In this document: in pieces, positions 30,001-60,000 of the stretch
Layout of the letters: the number at the start of each line of letters is the position of its first letter
Position numbering within the stretch: position 1 is the first letter of the stretch
Source of the DNA: Deltaproteobacteria bacterium
GTDB lineage: Bacteria; Desulfobacterota_D; UBA1144; Nemesobacterales; CSP1-2
Direction of reading: 5' to 3'
Assembly (NCBI GenBank): GCA_052390235.1
Contig: JBQTHB010000003.1
Location: 224,001 to 288,000 of the forward strand
Length of the DNA: 64,000 nucleotides
Program-made: the position numbers

Positions 30001-33000
30001 CCCAGAGAGGTAACCATTCTAGAGCTGGCGACGATGATTATCGAGCTTACCGGCTCTCGCTCGAAGGTGGTTTTCAAAGCGCTCCCTCAGGACGACCCAG
30101 AGAGGAGAAAGCCCGATATTTCCCTCGCCAACGGGAAACTCGGCTGGCAACCCACGGTGCATCTCGAAGATGGACTCAGAACGAGCATAGAGTATTTTAA
30201 GGGAAAGCTCGGGATTTAGAGCCGGCTCTGGCCCCGACTGCCGAGAAGCACAGAAACGGGCGCTCAGCAGATTCTAGGCAGTTGTTCCCCCGTGAGCATA
30301 TCCACAACCCTCGTGCCGCCGATTCTCGTCTTCATGAACACTATACCCGGATGCTCAGCCGTAATCTCTCCGATGACGACGGCGTCTGTGGCTAATGGGT
30401 TTTCCCTCATTTTTTTGACTATCGAGTCGGCGGCGTCTCTTGCGACTATTGCGATGAGTTTCCCCTCGTTCGCCACATATAGCGGGTCTAGCCCCAGGGT
30501 CTCGCAAGCCCCTTTGACCTCTCTGGTTATCGGGATTTTGCTCTCTTCGATGCGAATCCCCACGCGGGAGCTTGCGGCAAGTTCATTCAGCGCGCTGGCA
30601 ACGCCCCCGCGAGTAGGGTCGCGCATACAGCGGATTTCCAAGCTCACCGAGAGCATATCCGAGACTAGAGCGGCAAGAGAAGCCGTATCGCTCAGTATCT
30701 TGGTCTCGAATTCAAGCCCCTCCCTTACGGACATAATAGCTATCCCGTGAATCCCTATAGCGCCGCTTAGGATGACTCTATCTCCGGGCTTTGCCGCATC
30801 TGCCGAGATTCTCAGCTCTCTTTCAATAACGCCTAGCCCCGAGGTGTTGATGAAAATTTTATCAGCCTTGCCCCTGTCCACGACTTTAGTGTCACCCGTA
30901 ACGAGTTGAACCCCAGCAATATCTGCCGCAGTCTTCATCGAGACGACAATGCGCCATAAATCCTCCATCGGGAATCCCTCCTCCAGAATAAACCCCGCGC
31001 TGATGTAAAGGGGCTTCGCGCCGCTTACGGCAAGGTCGTTTACAGTGCCGTTCACGGCAAGCTCGCCTATGTCCCCTCCGGGGAAGAATATCGGGCTTAC
31101 AACGTAGGAGTCGGTAGTAAAGGCAAGGCGCGCGCCGTTTATCTCCAATGAGGCGGCGTCGTTAAGGGGAGAGAGAAGCGGGTTGCCGAATTGCGGGAGA
31201 AATATCTTTTTCATGAGGTCGGCTGAGAGCTTTCCGCCGCTTCCGTGCCCGAGCAGGACTTTTTTGTAGTTGGTCATCGGCATGGGACAACTCAGGGTGA
31301 ATAATTCGGCTTTCTCGGACATCGCGAGGCCTCCTGGAAATGTAGTTTGGTTTAAGACTCCGTATGAGAGTGAACCCGGCTAAACGCCGCTCCCGAGGGG
31401 ATTTCGTCAATTTCTGGATTCTCGCCCAAGAAGCCACATTCGGCGTGGACGGCTAAATAACGTCTTCTTCGCCCAATATGACGTGAATCATATCCCACAT
31501 TATGTGAAGCAGAGTCTCCTGAGTTTCCTGAATGCGGTGGATGCTATAAGTGGGAACAACGAAGCAGTGATCCGAAAGCTGAGGCATCTGGCCCCCGTCC
31601 TTTCCGGCAAAAGCGATAGTTATCATGCCCATCTCGCGCGCCGCCTTGAGTCCGCGTATTACGTTTGCAGATTTGCCGCTCGTGCTGATGCCCAGAGCCA
31701 TATCCCCCGCCCTCCCAAGGAGCTTTATCTGGTCGTGGAATATCATGGAGAAATCCTTATCGTTGCCGATGGCGGTCATGGTAGCCACGTCGTTCGTAAG
31801 GGCGATGGCGGGGAAAGAGCGGCGCTTTTCTATTATAGGATGCAGGAACTCTACGGCTACGTGCTGGGCATCGCAGGCACTCCCGCCGTTGCCCATGACT
31901 AGGAGTTTCCCCCCCTTCGTGAACGCCTCAGCCATCGCCTCGGCGAGACGGAGAATATTATCGGCGTTGTCCTCGAAGAATTTCTCCTTCTGCTCCATGC
32001 TGTCGCGGCACTTGCGGATAATGGTCTCTCTTAGCGGATTCATTTTCAGTGGGCTACCTCTTAGATTGATATTGTAGCAGTCAAACGCCGGGTTCGATAG
32101 AGCGCGCGTCGAAGAACCCACTCCCCTCTGGCAGGCTGAGGATGCGCCCCCCCTCATCACGCATCCCGCGCATCTGGCTATTCTATTACCCCGCCGCCGC
32201 CGATTTCAAATATCTGCCGTAGTTATAATACGCGGCACAGGCCCCCTCAGACGAGACCATTGTCGCGCCAAGCGGACGCTCCGGCGTGCATTCTTTGCCG
32301 AAAGCCGGGCATTCGTGCGGTTTTTTCAGTCCCCTCAGCACCTGCCCGCTTATGCAAGCCGAAGACTCCTCAGCCTCGATGTAGTCAACGCCAAAAATCC
32401 TCTCGGCGTCGTGTTCGCGGTATTCATATTTGAGCTTATAACCACTCTTGGGAATTATGCCTATGCCGCGCCATTTTCTGTCGGCAATATCGAAAACATC
32501 GAGAATAATTTTTTGAGCCGGCAGGTTTCCCTCCCTCTTCACTGCCCTTGCGTACTGGTTTTGGACGTCGTGCCTGCCCTCTTCGAGCTGCTTTACCGTG
32601 AGATAAACCCCCTCAAGGAGATCTAGCGGCTCAAACCCCGTAACGACTATCGGCACTCTGTAGCGCGCAGAGATTGGCTCGTATTCCCACCACCCCATGA
32701 CGGCGCACACATGGCCCGCTCCAAGGAATCCCTGCACTTGGTTATGCGGGGACTGCAAGATAGAAGCCATCGAAGGGGGAACGAGAACGTGCGAGACGAG
32801 TATGGAGAAATTATTTATTCCGAGCCGCTTTGCCTGCCATACGGACATAGCGTTTGCAGGGGCGGTTGTCTCGAAGCCGACGGCGAAAAATACGACTTTT
32901 TTCTGAGGGTTGTTCTGGGCGATTTTCAGCGCGTCAAGCGGCGAATAGACGATTCTCACGTCGCCCCCCTCGGATTTAACGGCAAAGAGGTCTCTTTTCG

Positions 33001-57000: not shown

Positions 57001-60000
57001 TCTGCTGAGAATGGCGTGGAAGTGGCAGAGGGGGGACGTCGCCCGCAACACCGGAGGCGACCTCAAGGCGGCGCTCGGACGCATCAAGGCGAAGGTCTTT
57101 ACGATGCCGATTGACGAGGATATGTTCTTCCCGCCGAGGGACTGCGAAGCGGAGCAGAAGATGATTCCGAACAGCGAATTTCACGTGATAAAGAGCATTG
57201 ACGGGCATTTGGCGCTATTCGGCACTGACCCGAATTATATAGGGCAGGTTGACGCGTGCCTCAATAAACTGCTGGCGACTGCGGTTTAAATTTGGCAATT
57301 ACAAGCGGGCGCGGAAGGGCAGGGTCGGCGCTCTTCCGCGCCCGATACGCCCAATGGCACATACACGATTTGGGACACCCCACAATTAACTCCCGGACTT
57401 ATAATCGCGGGCTGAGAACTTGTGCTTAGCCATCAAGCGGTGAAACGTGCGGCGCGGCACTTTGGCAATTGCCGCCGCCTTGGTGATATTCCCCCTCGAT
57501 TCAATGAGATAATTTAGAATCTCCTGCCTCTCGTGGCGGTCAATGAAGCGGCCCTTATCCTCCAGAAATCCCCGTCCCGTCTCGCCGGCATCTATCGCCT
57601 GTACGTGGAACGGCAGATGCTCCGGCTCGATGGCGGAGGACACCGTCAGCACAACGGCCCTTTCTAGCACGTTTTCAAGCTCTCTGAGATTTCCGGGCCA
57701 TGAGTAGCCACGGAGATGATACATAGCCGCCGGGGATATTGCCTCGACCATCTTATTGACCTTAGCCCTAGCTTTGTCGAGAAAATGCACGGCGAGCCGG
57801 GGGACGTCCTCGATTCTCTCCCGTAGCGGGGGGAGAGCGATGGTAAAGGTATTGATGCGGTAAAAGAGGTCTTCGCGGAATTTCCCCTCGCGGATGGCGT
57901 ATTCCAAGTCCCGATTGGTGGCGGCGATGACCCTTACTGATATTCTCTTTGTGCGAACCTCGCCCACAGGGCGTATTTCGCCGGTCTGAAGGGTTCTGAG
58001 GAGTTTCGCCTGAGTGTCGGGGGACATATCGCCGATTTCATCGAGGAAAACAGTTCCGCCGTCGGCTTTTTCAAATAGCCCGATTCTATCCGAAGATGCG
58101 CCTGTGAACGCGCCGCGCTTGTAGCCGAAAAGCTCGCTCTCCAGCAGTCCGGCGGATAGGGCCGTGCAGTTGATTGTTACAAGAGGGAAGTTGCTAAGCG
58201 CGCTTCGGCGGTGAATGGCTCTTGCGGCGAGTTCCTTGCCCGTGCCGCTTTCGCCGCGAATCAGCACCGTGGTCGGAGTCGGGGCTACTTTGGCTATAAG
58301 CTCGGCGACCTGCCTCATTTTTGGATTATCGCCGATGACAAATTCCGAATCCGAGTTTTGCTCAAGCTCTCTGAGGGCGAGGCGGTAGCGCTCTTTTAGG
58401 GTTTTCGCCTGAGCCTGAGCCTCGATGAATTCCCAGAAAAGGCGCGCCCCCACGGGACCTATAAGCTCGGTTCGCTCGGATTTGAGGGAGTAAATCTCCC
58501 TGCAGGCTTCGGGGTTTCCAGTGGCATCAATTATGAGGTCGGCGGGTACGGAGGGAATGAGTTGCCTGTAGTCGGTCGTAACGGGAATCCCGAGTCCCTT
58601 TGCGATGACAAAGCCCACTGCCCGCTCGTCAATATCGGCGACCCCGACGACCTTAACCGCCGGGGCTTGGAAAAATAGATTGAGAAGCGCCTGCCCGCCC
58701 CTGCCCGCTCCAACTATTATGACTCGCTTCATCCGCTCTCCAAGAGAATTTATCTCGCTCTGAAATTTTCGCAGAGTAATTCCATCGAATATCAGGTCTA
58801 ATGCCCGCGTTGGGGCCAGGGGGCATCAAGGGGCCACCTGCAACGGTCAACCCCGCCCGACATTGACTCCATCTCGGCGAGGAGGTCGTCATAAAAGGCG
58901 CGCCACGCCGCAACCCCGGCATTCGGCGCCGGGAAATTTCCCGAAAAAAATAGCCACGCCTCTGGCATAGAATCGGTAGAAGAGGGACTAAACGGAAGCG
59001 ATTCGTCCGCCACTGCGGCGCGCCGCCAAGCGTATTCCTCGCCGCGCCGCTCGATATAGACCATCTCGCCGTCCAGATTTGAAGCCATAAGCTCGGAAAA
59101 CAGCTCTTCTCGGCTCATACTCGCTCCCCCTCCTCAATATATTTGATTTAGCGTCTGGCTTTGTCCGGCGGCATCCCCCCTCGGTCTAGGGAGAACGTAG
59201 AGCCGCCGAGGCGCCCCGGCTCGAATTCCGAATCCCCCATGCTCTTGCGGTAAAATTCCGAGAGTTGAGGGGAGGCGTCCTGCCCCTCGTTCATCGCAAT
59301 GCAGGGCTTCACAAAAGCGCAGGTGGAGCAGTTCTCCCTAGATGGGCTTGGATAAATCCGAACCTCAGGATTTGCCATCTCCATAGCCTCCATCACGATT
59401 TGCCGCCCGAAATTCTCAATTGCCGCCCGGCTCCTCGGAACGTGCGTGCGGCGAAAGGAATCCCCGCAGAACGTCTGTTTCATCGTGAAATCGGGTTCTC
59501 GTATAGCTTGCAGATAAATACGGCGCGAGGGGCTAGCTTTGGGGGCGGGGTTTGGTTTATTTGGAAAATTCGAGGGATTAGAGGGGATTTGCCCGCCCGA
59601 TGGGGATGAGTCCTTGCGAAGCTCGTTATAGACGACGCCCGCGATTTTCATTCCGGGGAAATAGCTCTCAAGCGCCCAGCAGTGAGAGAGTTCCCGCTCG
59701 TCGAGCAGGAGATTTTCCGCATACTCCCACGCGCCTTCCACGACCCTGTGTTTAATTATCCAGTAGGCGTTATATTCGTCCACCGCGAGCAGATTCACAC
59801 GCCCCCTGTAGCGTATGGGCAGAACGGGAATGGCGCCGGGAACAACCAAATCCTGCCCCGGGCGGGCGGGGTCTGGGATATTCACCTCGAAATCCGGCTC
59901 AACCTGAATCGGCGAGAAATCGTCAACCGAAGCCGCCCACTCGAAATAGCGATTCAGCATCAGCTCGCCGAAGGCTAGTTGCGCCTCATGGTCAGGGGAC

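Follow-up and report, generated by a model that had tools for sequence, protein, structure and literature searches.

A group 1h [NiFe]-hydrogenase module beside a RuBisCO cassette of proposed lateral origin in a Desulfobacterota_D genome, a composite locus probably serving hydrogen-driven CO2 fixation

Does a single locus equip a bacterium of the phylum Desulfobacterota_D to fix CO2 with hydrogen, and how did its genes come to lie side by side? The window analyzed here is a 64,000-nt stretch of contig JBQTHB010000003.1 (assembly GCA_052390235.1), belonging to a metagenome-assembled genome (MAG) of a Deltaproteobacteria bacterium. It contains a minus-strand run (30264–58732) of a group 1h [NiFe]-hydrogenase cluster (hhySL, hhyE-like, hypACDEF) and a RuBisCO cluster (cbbL-cbbS-cbbX-prk-tkt). 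By coordinate, the run reads hypE, hypD, hypC, hypF, hypA, a hupD-type protease gene, DUF6084, DUF5947, NifU-like, hhyL and hhyS, followed by the MEDS/HxlR regulator, tkt, prk, cbbX, cbbS, cbbL, a transaldolase-family gene and a sigma-54 activator. Families were assigned with Pfam and NCBIfam profiles, which bear out the gene content and coordinates of a preliminary description (Table 1). That description spoke of a single island of ~28 kb; the two clusters do adjoin, but they are modules with separate histories, and the carbon-fixation half alone is unique. The island is a composite of module 1 (30264–47308, hydrogenase) and module 2 (47583–58732, carbon fixation). We favor, with a probability of about 0.72, the reading that a shared 1h hydrogenase module and a laterally acquired, self-contained CBB cassette together serve H2-driven CO2 fixation.

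Table 1. Features of the composite locus, with positions counted along the window (G014, another genome of the same family)
Feature	Position	Strand	Evidence
hypE	30264–31322	-	TIGR02124 473.5 bits (cut-off 251.6); 75% identity to G014 copy
SIS-domain (GmhA-like) protein of hydrogenase cluster	31453–32160	-	PF13580; 79% to G014, position kept
hypD	32186–33292	-	PF01924 514 bits; 86% to G014
hypC	33400–33663	-	PF01455 88 bits; 86% to G014
Outer-membrane beta-barrel protein gene, between hypC and hypF	33764–34438	-	PF13505; absent from G014 cluster
hypF	34511–36928	-	HypF domains, zf-HYPF, acylphosphatase; 64% to G014
YceI-like protein	36953–37507	-	PF04264; 55% to G014, position kept
hypA	37664–38119	-	PF01155; histidine-rich C-terminal tail
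Hydrogenase maturation protease (HupD/HycI type)	38504–39043	-	TIGR00072 107.6 bits
Accessory trio: 485-aa protein without family, DUF6084, DUF5947	39043–41853	-	PF19562 293 bits, PF19372 233 bits
HhyE-like iron-sulfur protein, NifU-like domain	41879–42781	-	PF01106; CxxC at 131, 239, 258
hhyL, group 1h [NiFe]-hydrogenase large subunit	42881–44689	-	1129 bits to 5AA5_C; RICGIC and DPCLPCGVH motifs
hhyS, small subunit	44731–45786	-	645.5 bits to 5AA5_A, full length; ≤152 to other chains
MEDS and HxlR regulator at the module boundary, upstream of hhyS	46307–47308	-	PF14417, PF01638
Fused transketolase (tkt), NF004559 type	47583–49589	-	887 bits (cut-off 488); 668 aa as called, open frame to 49739
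prk, phosphoribulokinase	50047–51054	-	NF005655 406.8 bits (cut-off 236); P-loop present
cbbX, red-type RuBisCO activase	51085–52032	-	TIGR02880 472.3 bits (cut-off 459.25); Walker A and B present
cbbS, RuBisCO small subunit	52130–52588	-	PF00101 135.8 bits
cbbL, form I (IE-type) RuBisCO large subunit	52634–54085	-	PF00016 447.9 bits; trees
Long transaldolase-family gene, opens cbb operon	54308–55690	-	PF00923; position matches metagenome cassettes
Candidate sigma-54 type -24/-12 promoter, TGGCAC-N5-TTGC	55734–55748	-	~45 nt upstream of ATG; same element in related cassettes
Two adjacent palindromes TGNGAC-N6-GTCNCA, candidate activator sites	55845–55885	.	~100–137 nt upstream of promoter
Genome-wide native repeat copy, in doubtful 103-aa open frame	56013–56052	.	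38 hits, 6 of 9 contigs
MetX-like alpha/beta hydrolase, separating activator and operon	56237–57289	+	NF005757 499.4 bits; 2 of 120 in phylum
Sigma-54 activator, N-terminal Rossmann (NAD-binding type) sensor domain	57386–58732	-	PF00158 229 bits; GAGRGG and GAFTGA motifs

Module 1 is, judged by its sequence, a predicted cytoplasm-facing, oxygen-tolerant-type group 1h [NiFe]-hydrogenase with an HhyE-like partner, hypACDEF and a MEDS/HxlR regulator; group 1h is a sequence class, from which neither 'high-affinity' nor 'atmospheric' can be deduced. Among solved structures, HhyL reaches its 1129 bits with 5AA5 against at most 143 for any other chain, as first described, and its NiFe-binding CxxC pairs are intact. 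A twin-arginine motif of the RRxF[LIV]K type is absent from the entire HhyS sequence, and the CxxC pattern of the HhyE-like protein matches the passage on HhyE in PMC6883350. A collinear cluster of 15 genes is present in G014, where the accessory trio keeps its order at 52–62% identity and the MEDS/HxlR regulator has a 41% partial counterpart at the cut start of the contig. HypA of the window has its histidine-rich tail, whereas HypA of G014 does not.

To place both modules, we compared them with 120 species genomes of Desulfobacterota_D (94 of high quality). At E ≤ 0.001, hhyL has matches in three of these, with a real counterpart in G014 only (88%, 1297 bits); the match in G030 scores just 17.5 bits. 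The identity of 88% is insufficient by itself to make the G014 protein the true orthologue it had been called, as Gemmatimonadales and Acidobacteriota HhyL proteins likewise reach 86–88%, but the tree does join window and G014 within one clade of five rows (SH-aLRT 93). The hydrogenase module is common to a small sublineage of this family. The reported absence of hypB from the genome holds (best match 19.5 bits, cut-off 121), and hypB is also missing in the other Hhy-bearing genome; the one phylum genome of 120 that encodes it (G013) is itself without hhyL. Nickel insertion must therefore use another route, and the hydrogenase could be immature.

Module 2 is, on sequence grounds, a foreign, self-contained carbon-fixation cassette comprising an activator, upstream sites, a promoter and the operon transaldolase-like gene-cbbL-cbbS-cbbX-prk-tkt. 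Inspection of CbbL finds all active-site motifs intact, and K190 of the transaldolase-family protein is conserved in every one of the 28 sequences aligned. The claim that this is the sole RuBisCO of the phylum stands, with PF00016 found in one of the 120 genomes (one of 94 among the high-quality ones). True prk matches and the transaldolase-like gene are each found in one of 120 as well, and the activator has paralogue-level matches only (≤54% identity, AAA core only). The fused tkt (1 of 120) lacks a full-length counterpart among the other phylum genomes, which have split transketolases. Outside the phylum, the gene order cbbLSX-prk is indeed common to relatives: metagenome contigs L113, L116, L118 and L119 share the order activator (66–71% identity), transaldolase-like gene (67–68%), cbbL (86–88%), cbbS, cbbX and prk (69–73%), and in the Acidobacteriota loci L005, L047 and L049 the activator lies directly upstream of cbbL. 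Many of these supporting loci are closely related, making up in effect ~4 independent lineages. Unlike in the other cassettes, the plus-strand hydrolase and the repeat here separate activator and operon, and the transketolase is of a different type from that of other cbb loci (~29% identity), its best named relatives being Armatimonadota (~61%).

The cassette also appears to carry its own control. The activator shares 62–71% identity with activators that precede cbb genes in other loci, and the best fold matches of its structural model (pLDDT 93.9) are NAD-dependent dehydrogenases. Its family is not restricted to cbb loci: in G501, a member sits in a fetched stretch of 16 kb that lacks cbb genes, and the genome gives no match to RuBisCO. 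The -24/-12 element is found in the window, L113, the L116 group and L047/L049, and across 270 kb from 26 transaldolase-gene loci, six of the eight matches with at most one mismatch fall at this promoter position. The exact palindrome occurs in just 10 of 171 loci, all of them activator/transaldolase/cbb loci, and in six loci it lies 136–143 nt before the promoter. The host encodes rpoN. The same region can also be taken for a strong promoter of the sigma-70 type (TTGGCA-16-TATAAT, 11 of 12 positions matching), making sigma-54 dependence in this host uncertain.

The gene set for hydrogen-driven chemosynthesis, as originally proposed, is present. Besides the hydrogenase and CBB genes, the genome encodes a caa3 oxidase operon, two copies each of FBPase and RPE, a pentose-phosphate operon with a DeoC/LacD-type aldolase, and GAPDH, PGK and RpiB; every Calvin-cycle enzyme of a search set that left out triose-phosphate isomerase was found. 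From this we infer enzyme activities, an electron route, a sensed signal and growth on H2 and CO2 that may fit together as follows. Hhy would oxidize H2 and pass electrons via HhyE to the respiratory chain and the caa3 oxidase, and the resulting ATP and reductant would power the Calvin cycle. The cassette would supply both diagnostic enzymes of this cycle, the activase, a transketolase and a transaldolase, while the other steps would fall to native genes of gluconeogenesis and the pentose-phosphate pathway. An excess of reductant, signaled by the NAD(H) pool, may lead the activator to turn on the operon through the host sigma-54.

An NAD-binding-type Rossmann sensor is more in keeping with redox control than with a response to H2 or CO2, and so also suits a different role, in which the cassette is mainly a redox valve or re-fixes CO2 mixotrophically, as in purple non-sulfur bacteria. 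There would then be no autotrophic growth, the hydrogenase would serve energy maintenance only, and the adjacency would be incidental. The separate regulators and histories of the two modules agree with this, and a genome of 2.29 Mb with a complete oxidative pentose-phosphate and sugar kinase operon suggests an organotroph. Furthermore, it is for persistence that group 1h enzymes are best known, a point also made in PMC6883350. Against such a role, prk, activase, transketolase and transaldolase make the cassette a full autotroph outfit, and Methylacidiphilum-type autotrophs have the same RuBisCO clade and the transaldolase-like gene. In addition, IE-type RuBisCO together with 1h hydrogenases is the published marker set of hydrogen-driven chemosynthesis (PMC9561532). 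We regard this alternative role as unlikely, though worth keeping in mind; it and autotrophy are not mutually exclusive.

Phylogeny bears on where the cassette came from. The stated cbbL identity of 85–89% to Acidobacteriota is matched by seven Acidobacteriota MAGs, followed by 83% to Methylacidimicrobium and to a Methylacidiphilaceae MAG. A quick RbcL tree of 81 rows recovers the clade of 11 reported before (eight Acidobacteriota, two Verrucomicrobiota and the window) with SH-aLRT 92 rather than 97, nested in an IE-type clade of 65 rows (support 100). In a careful four-gene tree, 14 rows including the window form a clade (100/100) set against Actinomycetota. Within this clade the window lies in an unresolved polytomy on a long end branch (0.25), outside an 8-row crown clade (100/99) of six Acidobacteriota MAGs (mostly with Terriglobales/Korobacteraceae labels) and two metagenome contigs. 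Its nearest row is a metagenome contig, and the closest sequence over four cassette proteins has at most 78% identity. The CBB module thus groups, by these sequences, with Acidobacteriota, Verrucomicrobiota and Chloroflexota inside the IE-type clade. Lateral acquisition is supported by a foreign module confined to one genome of 120 and a cassette common to other lineages. Acidobacteriota as the donor are not, since the window lies outside their crown clade despite its nearest named relatives.

The long branch outside the crown clade would also suit vertical descent, in which the phylum or family inherited the cassette from its ancestor and lost it everywhere else. Composition is near native: GC per 5 kb is 0.547–0.563 against 0.530 for the genome, tetranucleotide distance is ordinary, and only cbbL, prk, cbbX and the hydrolase gene have a GC3 at or above the genome 95th percentile (0.683). 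Moreover, the ends bear neither tRNA nor integrase genes nor flanking direct repeats, and in no relative do the flank markers iPGM and CdsA share a contig that could show an empty site. Descent of this kind would nevertheless require that 119 of the 120 species genomes, spread over 31 other genera, had lost the cassette. A native split transketolase and a TAL-PGI fusion persist in the host, making the cassette genes extra copies of a foreign type; the entire cassette, promoter and palindrome included, is common to other lineages; and frequent transfer of exactly such genes is reported (PMC13554262). We consider vertical descent highly improbable. In the preferred scenario, a donor resembling Acidobacteriota or not yet sampled would have passed on the cassette laterally, placing it upstream of the hydrogenase regulator. 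The transfer would be old, given a composition nearly ameliorated and a native repeat inside the island, the repeat having invaded a long-resident cassette.

The locus sits, as described before, within a long contig (337,536 bases) among core genes and native repeats. It is flanked by Obg, an RNB exonuclease (RNase II/R-type), tRNA-Gln, iPGM and CdsA, of which iPGM has counterparts of 68–79% identity in 12 of the 14 genomes of the family, marking a native flank. Contigs from four sequencing runs match 42001–56041 and continue leftward with no differences and even depth, although the assembly may itself have been built from these runs, which would then not be fully independent. In two of the runs a single 36.7-kb contig covers this interval, a length that implies that it extends past the hydrogenase cluster and enters native sequence on the left. 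That acidobacterial CBB genes were misassembled or misbinned into this genome might be suspected from a trait unique in the phylum, found in a MAG, with Acidobacteriota as nearest named relatives, GC3 of cbbL and prk just over the 95th percentile and short-read contigs broken at 56013–56041, but this unlikely chimerism, the least probable reading, is largely refuted by these contigs, by a break that coincides with the repeat copy and has even depth on each side (34.6 vs 31.2; 16.2 vs 15.7), by a right-hand contig that continues into native CdsA, by an estimated contamination of 0.83%, and by the 78% ceiling, which speaks against a piece of any acidobacterium sampled so far.

The composite locus thereby adds a new host lineage to an already known, often transferred trait. 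With a complete CBB gene set beside a hydrogenase, this bacterium can probably make biomass from CO2 with hydrogen gas.

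Within the phylum Desulfobacterota_D, RuBisCO (PF00016) is found in one of 120 species genomes (one of the 94 of high quality), and a true prk gene likewise in one of 120; two further prk matches, at 32–34% identity, lie inside frames of 676–680 aa. The fused transketolase (1/120) and the long transaldolase-like gene (1/120, plus one 24-bit match) are just as restricted, the MetX-like hydrolase occurs in two of the 120 genomes, and the sigma-54 activator has only paralogues in the phylum, at no more than 54% identity and in the AAA core only. A split two-gene transketolase, 37–45% identical to the window enzyme, is encoded in all 120 genomes (here at C5:194662-196418, on another contig). 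The preliminary description had reported this as the only RuBisCO module of the phylum, laterally acquired, Acidobacteriota-like and placed beside a group 1h [NiFe]-hydrogenase. The finding is real and this first reading holds, with some refinements.

The island (30264–58732) consists of 26 minus-strand genes and a single plus-strand gene, the hydrolase. The cbb operon starts with the transaldolase-like gene, followed by cbbL, cbbS, cbbX, prk and the fused transketolase. The first part of the hydrogenase cluster comprises hhyS, hhyL, a NifU-like gene, DUF5947, DUF6084, a 485-aa gene without a family, a maturation protease, a 91-aa gene and hypA; a YceI-like gene, hypF, an outer-membrane barrel gene, hypC, hypD, a SIS-domain gene and hypE complete it. 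The beta-barrel gene, between hypC and hypF, is missing from the collinear cluster of G014, a genome of the same family.

Coordinates of features in and around the island (window positions)
Feature	Position	Strand	Remark
Only tRNA	11836-11909		
Hairpin-like repeat copy	24819-24848		
Outer-membrane beta-barrel gene	33764-34438		between hypC and hypF
hypA	37664-38119		
hypE		minus	TIGR02124, 474 bits (cut-off 252)
MEDS/HxlR regulator	46307-47308	minus	after transketolase, ahead of hydrogenase cluster
Fused transketolase	47583-49589	minus	NF004559, 887 bits (cut-off 488)
prk		minus	NF005655, 406.8 bits (cut-off 236)
cbbX		minus	TIGR02880, 472.3 bits (cut-off 459.25)
Transaldolase-family gene	54308-55690	minus	460 aa
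-24/-12 element	55748-55734		perfect TGGCAC-N5-TTGC
Sigma-70-like promoter	55722-55749		TTGGCA-16-TATAAT
Palindrome	55845-55862		one mismatch
Palindrome	55868-55885		exact TGNGAC-N6-GTCNCA
Hairpin-like repeat copy	56013-56052		between activator and operon
103-aa frame, doubtful	contains 56013-56052		really a repeat copy
MetX-like hydrolase	56237-57289	plus	between activator and operon
Sigma-54 activator	57386-58732	minus	first in transcription direction
Hairpin-like repeat copy	60596-60635		

Judging by their conserved motifs, the enzymes of the cassette and of the hydrogenase look intact. CbbL contains all six active-site motifs (KPKLG, GxDFxKDDE, HxHRA, HxGTxxGK, SGG and FGGG, at 176, 197, 292, 327, 379 and 402), which we take to represent the catalytic lysines, the carbamylated lysine and the metal ligands. 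The cbbS gene (135.8 bits to PF00101) lies 45 nt downstream of cbbL, CbbX has its Walker A and B motifs, and PRK its P-loop. A CbbX-type AAA+ activase is a hallmark of red-type RuBisCO, and among solved RuBisCOs the window CbbL scores 756–806 bits to red-type and at most 680 bits to green-type enzymes. The fused transketolase and the tkt located after prk in other cassettes share ~29% identity, so that the usual tkt position is here taken by a non-orthologous transketolase. The best relatives of the fused enzyme are unnamed (69%) or come from Armatimonadota and Fervidibacter (~61%), and an NF004559-type transketolase is present in no other cbb locus examined. The named relatives of the transaldolase-like gene are from Acidobacteriota (61–68%), Methylacidiphilum (55%) and Methylomirabilota (50%).

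By sequence membership, the hydrogenase is predicted to belong to group 1h and to no other group. HhyL and HhyS reach 1129 and 645 bits, respectively, to 5AA5, the only solved 1h enzyme, versus at most 143 and 152 bits to every other solved hydrogenase, including Huc (7UTD), in agreement with the group assignment made earlier. This actinobacterial-type hydrogenase of Ralstonia eutropha H16 (HofK/HofG) is by far the closest solved structure for both subunits, which align with it over their full length. HhyL has kept both CxxC pairs of the NiFe centre (RICGIC at 83 and DPCLPCGVH at 573). HhyS aligns with the mature 5AA5 chain from residue 4, shares its GLGCDGDS N-terminal cluster-binding stretch and likewise has no Tat signal, an RRxF[LIV]K-type twin-arginine motif being absent from the whole protein. 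The lack of a twin-arginine export signal in the small subunit is a feature of group 1h. The accessory set of the window differs from that of HofK/HofG (DUF5947, DUF6084, the 485-aa protein, the HhyE-like protein and YceI are present and hypB is lacking), and the kinetics of the Ralstonia enzyme are not transferable to the window enzyme. The HhyE-like partner is the 300-aa NifU-like protein encoded directly downstream of hhyL, with CxxC motifs at 131, 239 and 258 in a one-plus-two pattern. In the available part of PMC6883350, HhyE is described as having a NifU-like CxxC and two C-terminal CxxC motifs, and as being required for Hhy activity in Mycobacterium smegmatis; the same part describes some 1h enzymes as mid-affinity. 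H2 affinity is not decided by sequence.

Maturation genes are present for HypA, C, D, E and F and for the protease, leaving the hypA–F set incomplete. The preliminary description had failed to find hypB, and the gene is indeed absent from the whole genome, as it is from G014. It occurs in one of the 120 phylum genomes: this sole hypB (G013:C336:1382-2014, 255 bits) comes from a genome without hhyL, where it is located on a small contig, and may belong to another hydrogenase or sit on a stray contig. The 25 residues at the end of the window HypA include 9 His; this histidine-rich tail, absent from the HypA of G014, could act as a nickel store standing in for HypB.

That the two halves form one island is true in the sense that their genes adjoin; a shared history, in contrast, does not fit the distribution of the hydrogenase. 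Real hhyL matches are present in two of the 120 phylum genomes, this one and G014, which belongs to another genus and shares 15 hydrogenase-cluster genes with the window in conserved order, with identities from 90% (hhyS) down to 52%. The G014 contig begins inside the regulator gene and so ends before any upstream genes, and neither RuBisCO nor prk was found anywhere in that genome (95% completeness). HhyL identity alone says little, as the protein is so conserved across phyla that hundreds of proteins match at 85–90%, including those of Gemmatimonadales (86–88%) and one of Acidobacteriota (87%). An HhyL tree (122 rows) unites the window with G014 and two unnamed proteins within a clade of five (SH-aLRT 93), and the named Gemmatimonadales and Acidobacteriota are farther from the window. 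Beyond this clade the tree is poorly resolved and few rows are named. In those acidobacterial genomes whose cbbL is closest, HhyL is just 78–82% identical, or no HhyL of the 1h type is present. This distance, together with the closer HhyL of G014, indicates that the hydrogenase did not arrive with the CBB genes. In one acidobacterial MAG (L089/L092, G123:C11:43422-45180), hhyL is split over two adjoining frames covering residues 16–344 and 344–599, owing to a frameshift or an assembly error.

For the carbon-fixation half, the Acidobacteriota-like source proposed earlier stands as far as named relatives go and needs qualification where the tree is concerned. The closest named cbbL genes are those of Acidobacteriota (85–89%), and in a comparison of 80 cbbL-centred loci, all from named genomes, six of the seven Acidobacteriota loci in this identity range have the order cbbL-cbbS-cbbX-prk. 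Taken together with the Methylacidiphilum/Methylacidimicrobium operons, the acidobacterial operons (mostly Terriglobales/Korobacteraceae) share 83–89% cbbL identity with the window, and cbbL-cbbS-cbbX(-prk) is their common order. The long transaldolase-family gene is common to the window, Acidobacteriota and Methylacidiphilum; it was found in none of the five closest acidobacterial genomes. A quick RbcL tree, whose rows besides the window are just the 80 most similar loci, reproduces the clade of 11 rows of the preliminary description, with eight Acidobacteriota and two Verrucomicrobiota (SH-aLRT 92). It is nested in an IE-type clade of 65 rows (SH-aLRT 100) from Actinomycetota, Acidobacteriota, Chloroflexota and Verrucomicrobiota, set against 14 Pseudomonadota rows, a phylogenetic placement that assigns the window RuBisCO to the IE lineage, apart from IC. 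A more careful tree was built from CbbL, CbbS, CbbX and Prk (21 rows, 1272 columns). Here, the window is part of a 14-row clade (100/100) against Actinomycetota, but it lies outside the 8-row crown clade (100/99) of six Acidobacteriota MAGs (mostly with Terriglobales/Korobacteraceae labels) and two metagenome contigs. It falls in a polytomy with the metagenome cassette L113, a Vicinamibacteria MAG, L137 and Chloroflexales, with L113 as the nearest row (78% over 1238 columns). The window differs from the acidobacterial and verrucomicrobial operons in its position outside the crown clade and in the type of its tkt.

The cassette itself recurs in other lineages. The activator lies directly upstream of cbbL in four compared loci, L005, L047 and L049 (62–69%) and L067 (56%). 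With the single transaldolase-like protein as query, a metagenome scan gave no match; with an alignment of this protein, it gave 55 loci, 11 of which also carry cbb genes, and many of the others are contigs shorter than 5 kb. Four of the metagenome cassettes (L113, L116, L118 and L119) contain the activator, the transaldolase-like gene, cbbL (86–88%), cbbS, cbbX and prk in the order of the window. L113, the closest, has an extra small gene (L113:4100-4978), CBS-domain-like by eye, between the sigma-54 promoter and the transaldolase-like gene. Among 401 sampled Acidobacteriota genomes, a strong match to the N-terminal domain of the activator (at least 105 bits) is found in four, over its full length in G120, G213 and G501 and over positions 2–111 in G230. 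Six of the 401 encode a form I-type RuBisCO, which has the activator within 4 kb in G120 and G213. G501 has the activator too; the 16 kb retrieved around it contains no cbb gene, and the genome as a whole has no RuBisCO match.

The DNA between activator and operon contains a -24/-12 element (GG-N10-GC; TGGCACGGCAGTTGC) ~45 nt ahead of the ribosome-binding site and ATG of the transaldolase-like gene. The same element is found between activator and operon in L113 (no mismatch) and in L116, L118, L119, L140 and L120 (one mismatch), and ~70 nt before cbbL in L047 and L049. A sigma-54 promoter directly upstream of cbbL was also considered for the window, where there is none; the element sits upstream of the transaldolase-like gene. 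A scan limited to 350 nt of the match start in the loci with this gene gave almost nothing, the elements lying farther upstream. Across 26 such loci (270 kb), the gene strand has eight matches with at most one mismatch, six of them at the operon-upstream position. Two adjacent palindromes complete the arrangement in the window. The exact form occurs in 10 of the 171 loci compared, all ten of them activator/transaldolase/cbb loci, which amount to about four independent lineages rather than ten. Its distance to the promoter is 136–143 nt in the window, L047, L116, L119, L140 and L120, and the window palindrome differs from the L047/L049 site by one base. Conservation at this fixed promoter distance is what supports the palindromes as candidate activator-binding sites, and the regulatory DNA appears to have travelled with the cassette. 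In the window, the bases of the -24/-12 element also read as a near-consensus, strong sigma-70 promoter (11 of 12 matches). None of the related cassettes examined has its -10 box, and the overlapping promoter may represent a host-specific gain in basal expression.

The activator has a sigma-54 interaction domain (PF00158, 229 bits) with the GAFTGA loop, and a C-terminal DNA-binding end. In this AAA+ domain and DNA-binding end it resembles the NtrC/NifA-class enhancer-binding proteins. All eight aligned members have GAGxGG within the first 100 residues, together with an invariant aspartate that follows strand 2; all eight also match the Rossmann families DapB_N and GFO_IDH_MocA of Pfam, and three match CoA_binding, the Pfam family to which the Rossmann domain of Rex belongs. 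A model of the sensor domain (pLDDT 93.9) has NAD-dependent dehydrogenases as its best fold matches. The activator resembles Rex-type NAD(H) sensors in its N-terminal Rossmann domain, a putative ligand-binding domain that contains GxGxxG and has an acidic residue following strand 2, whereas Rex is a repressor without an ATPase. The host encodes RpoN (PF04552, 184 bits, at C5:30167-30643) and about ten activators. According to the available part of PMC3404531, the usual activator of cbb genes is the LysR-type CbbR. Our search of the literature found no description of sigma-54 or enhancer-binding control of RuBisCO or cbb genes, nor of a Rossmann-sensor activator controlling RuBisCO.

The GC content of the island per 5 kb is 0.547–0.563, versus 0.530 (sd 0.025) for the genome, and tetranucleotide distances are ordinary; only four genes (cbbL, prk, cbbX and that of the hydrolase, at 0.68–0.70) have a GC3 at or above 0.683, the 95th percentile of the genome. 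A hairpin-like repeat of ~40 nt has 38 matches on six of the nine contigs, and the copy in the doubtful 103-aa frame is the only one inside the island; none of the 15 intergenic spacers of the island tested for native repeats has a non-self match in the genome. No tRNA, integrase or flanking direct repeat marks the island ends, and no integrase or transposase family was found among the genes scanned. The locus lacks these marks of a classical genomic island or integrative element. The flanks are native: the flank marker iPGM is 68–79% identical in 12 of the 14 family genomes, and CdsA, the other marker, 48–58% in all 14. The orthologues of these two genes (12/14 and 14/14) are never on one contig, so no insertion site is definable. 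The genome assembly comprises nine contigs (2.3 Mb, completeness 99.8%, contamination 0.83%). The region is also present in contigs assembled independently from four runs, all of one study, although the source samples may be these very runs; in two of them, a single 36.7-kb contig covers 42001–56041 with no difference and extends to the left. The sole break of the short-read contigs is at the repeat, and depth is even across it. A look-up of RNA runs for 45001–55000 returned none.

Elsewhere in the genome, a caa3-type oxidase operon encodes SCO1, CoxII with a fused cytochrome c, CoxI, CoxIII, CoxIV, CtaA and CtaB. Of the Calvin-cycle enzymes searched for, those found outside the island are two class I FBPases, a DeoC/LacD aldolase, two RPE, two RpiB, GAPDH, two PGK, the split transketolase and a TAL-PGI fusion; GlpX and class II aldolase are absent from the genome. 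A native pentose-phosphate operon (C5:50001-70000, L167) contains the 953-aa transaldolase-PGI fusion, 6PGDH, G6PDH, glucokinase, FBPase, the DeoC/LacD aldolase, 6PGL and RPE. Genes next to it encode a multihaem cytochrome containing an FHA domain, and a cNMP-binding flavoprotein that has ferredoxin domains.

Form IE RuBisCO and group 1h hydrogenase make up the gene set of trace-gas chemosynthesis of Actinomycetota, Ca. Dormibacterota and Ca. Eremiobacterota; the available text of Ray et al. 2022 (PMC9561532) reports form IE from eight phyla, including Acidobacteriota and Verrucomicrobiota. The phyla named in that part of the text do not include the host lineage, and the term 'Desulfobacterota' does not occur in it. 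The window likewise has an IE-type cbbL with cbbS and cbbX, a 1h hydrogenase with an HhyE-like partner, and an aerobic terminal oxidase in its genome. It differs in that the two modules abut in one locus, in the missing hypB, and in that a sigma-54 activator takes the place of the usual CbbR. In three of 80 related loci (L038, L061 and L073, all from Actinomycetota), cbbL has hydrogenase maturation genes (hypF, hypA, a SIS gene and the protease) less than 10 kb away, and their adjacency to RuBisCO genes therefore has precedents. In the available part of a study on Antarctic soils (PMC13554262), the metabolic genes transferred most often are reported to be those of 1h and 1l hydrogenases and of IE RuBisCO. 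As lateral transfer of these genes is already reported to be common, the find extends a known pattern and does not overturn it: what is new is the host lineage, the trait itself being known and mobile. The case is unusually well documented.

The boldest reading, to which we give a probability of about 45%, is that the carbon-fixation half is a portable 'plug-in' with its own redox-gated regulatory circuit, which made a lithoautotroph in one step by landing beside a hydrogenase. The Rossmann domain of the activator would read the NAD(H) pool, and the protein would act through the palindromic sites and the -24/-12 promoter. Reliance on the sigma-54 of the host would go some way to explaining how the cassette became established in so distant a lineage, one that has rpoN. 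Landing next to the hydrogenase would then make a lithoautotroph of one member of a phylum that otherwise lacks RuBisCO. If true, RuBisCO would here be gated by the redox state of the cell in an undescribed, CbbR-independent way. The activator, palindrome and promoter offer a concrete lead on a form of RuBisCO regulation that we did not find described, and are the part most worth an experiment. The locus is also an unusually clean example of the origin of a capacity for hydrogen-driven CO2 fixation, with a complete, self-regulated cassette beside an existing hydrogenase in a 2.3-Mb genome that already has an oxidase and sugar-phosphate enzymes. With it, a lineage at the level of a phylum (120 species genomes, otherwise without RuBisCO) joins the bacteria that may fix CO2 with hydrogen, and counts of dark carbon fixation are not readable from taxonomy.
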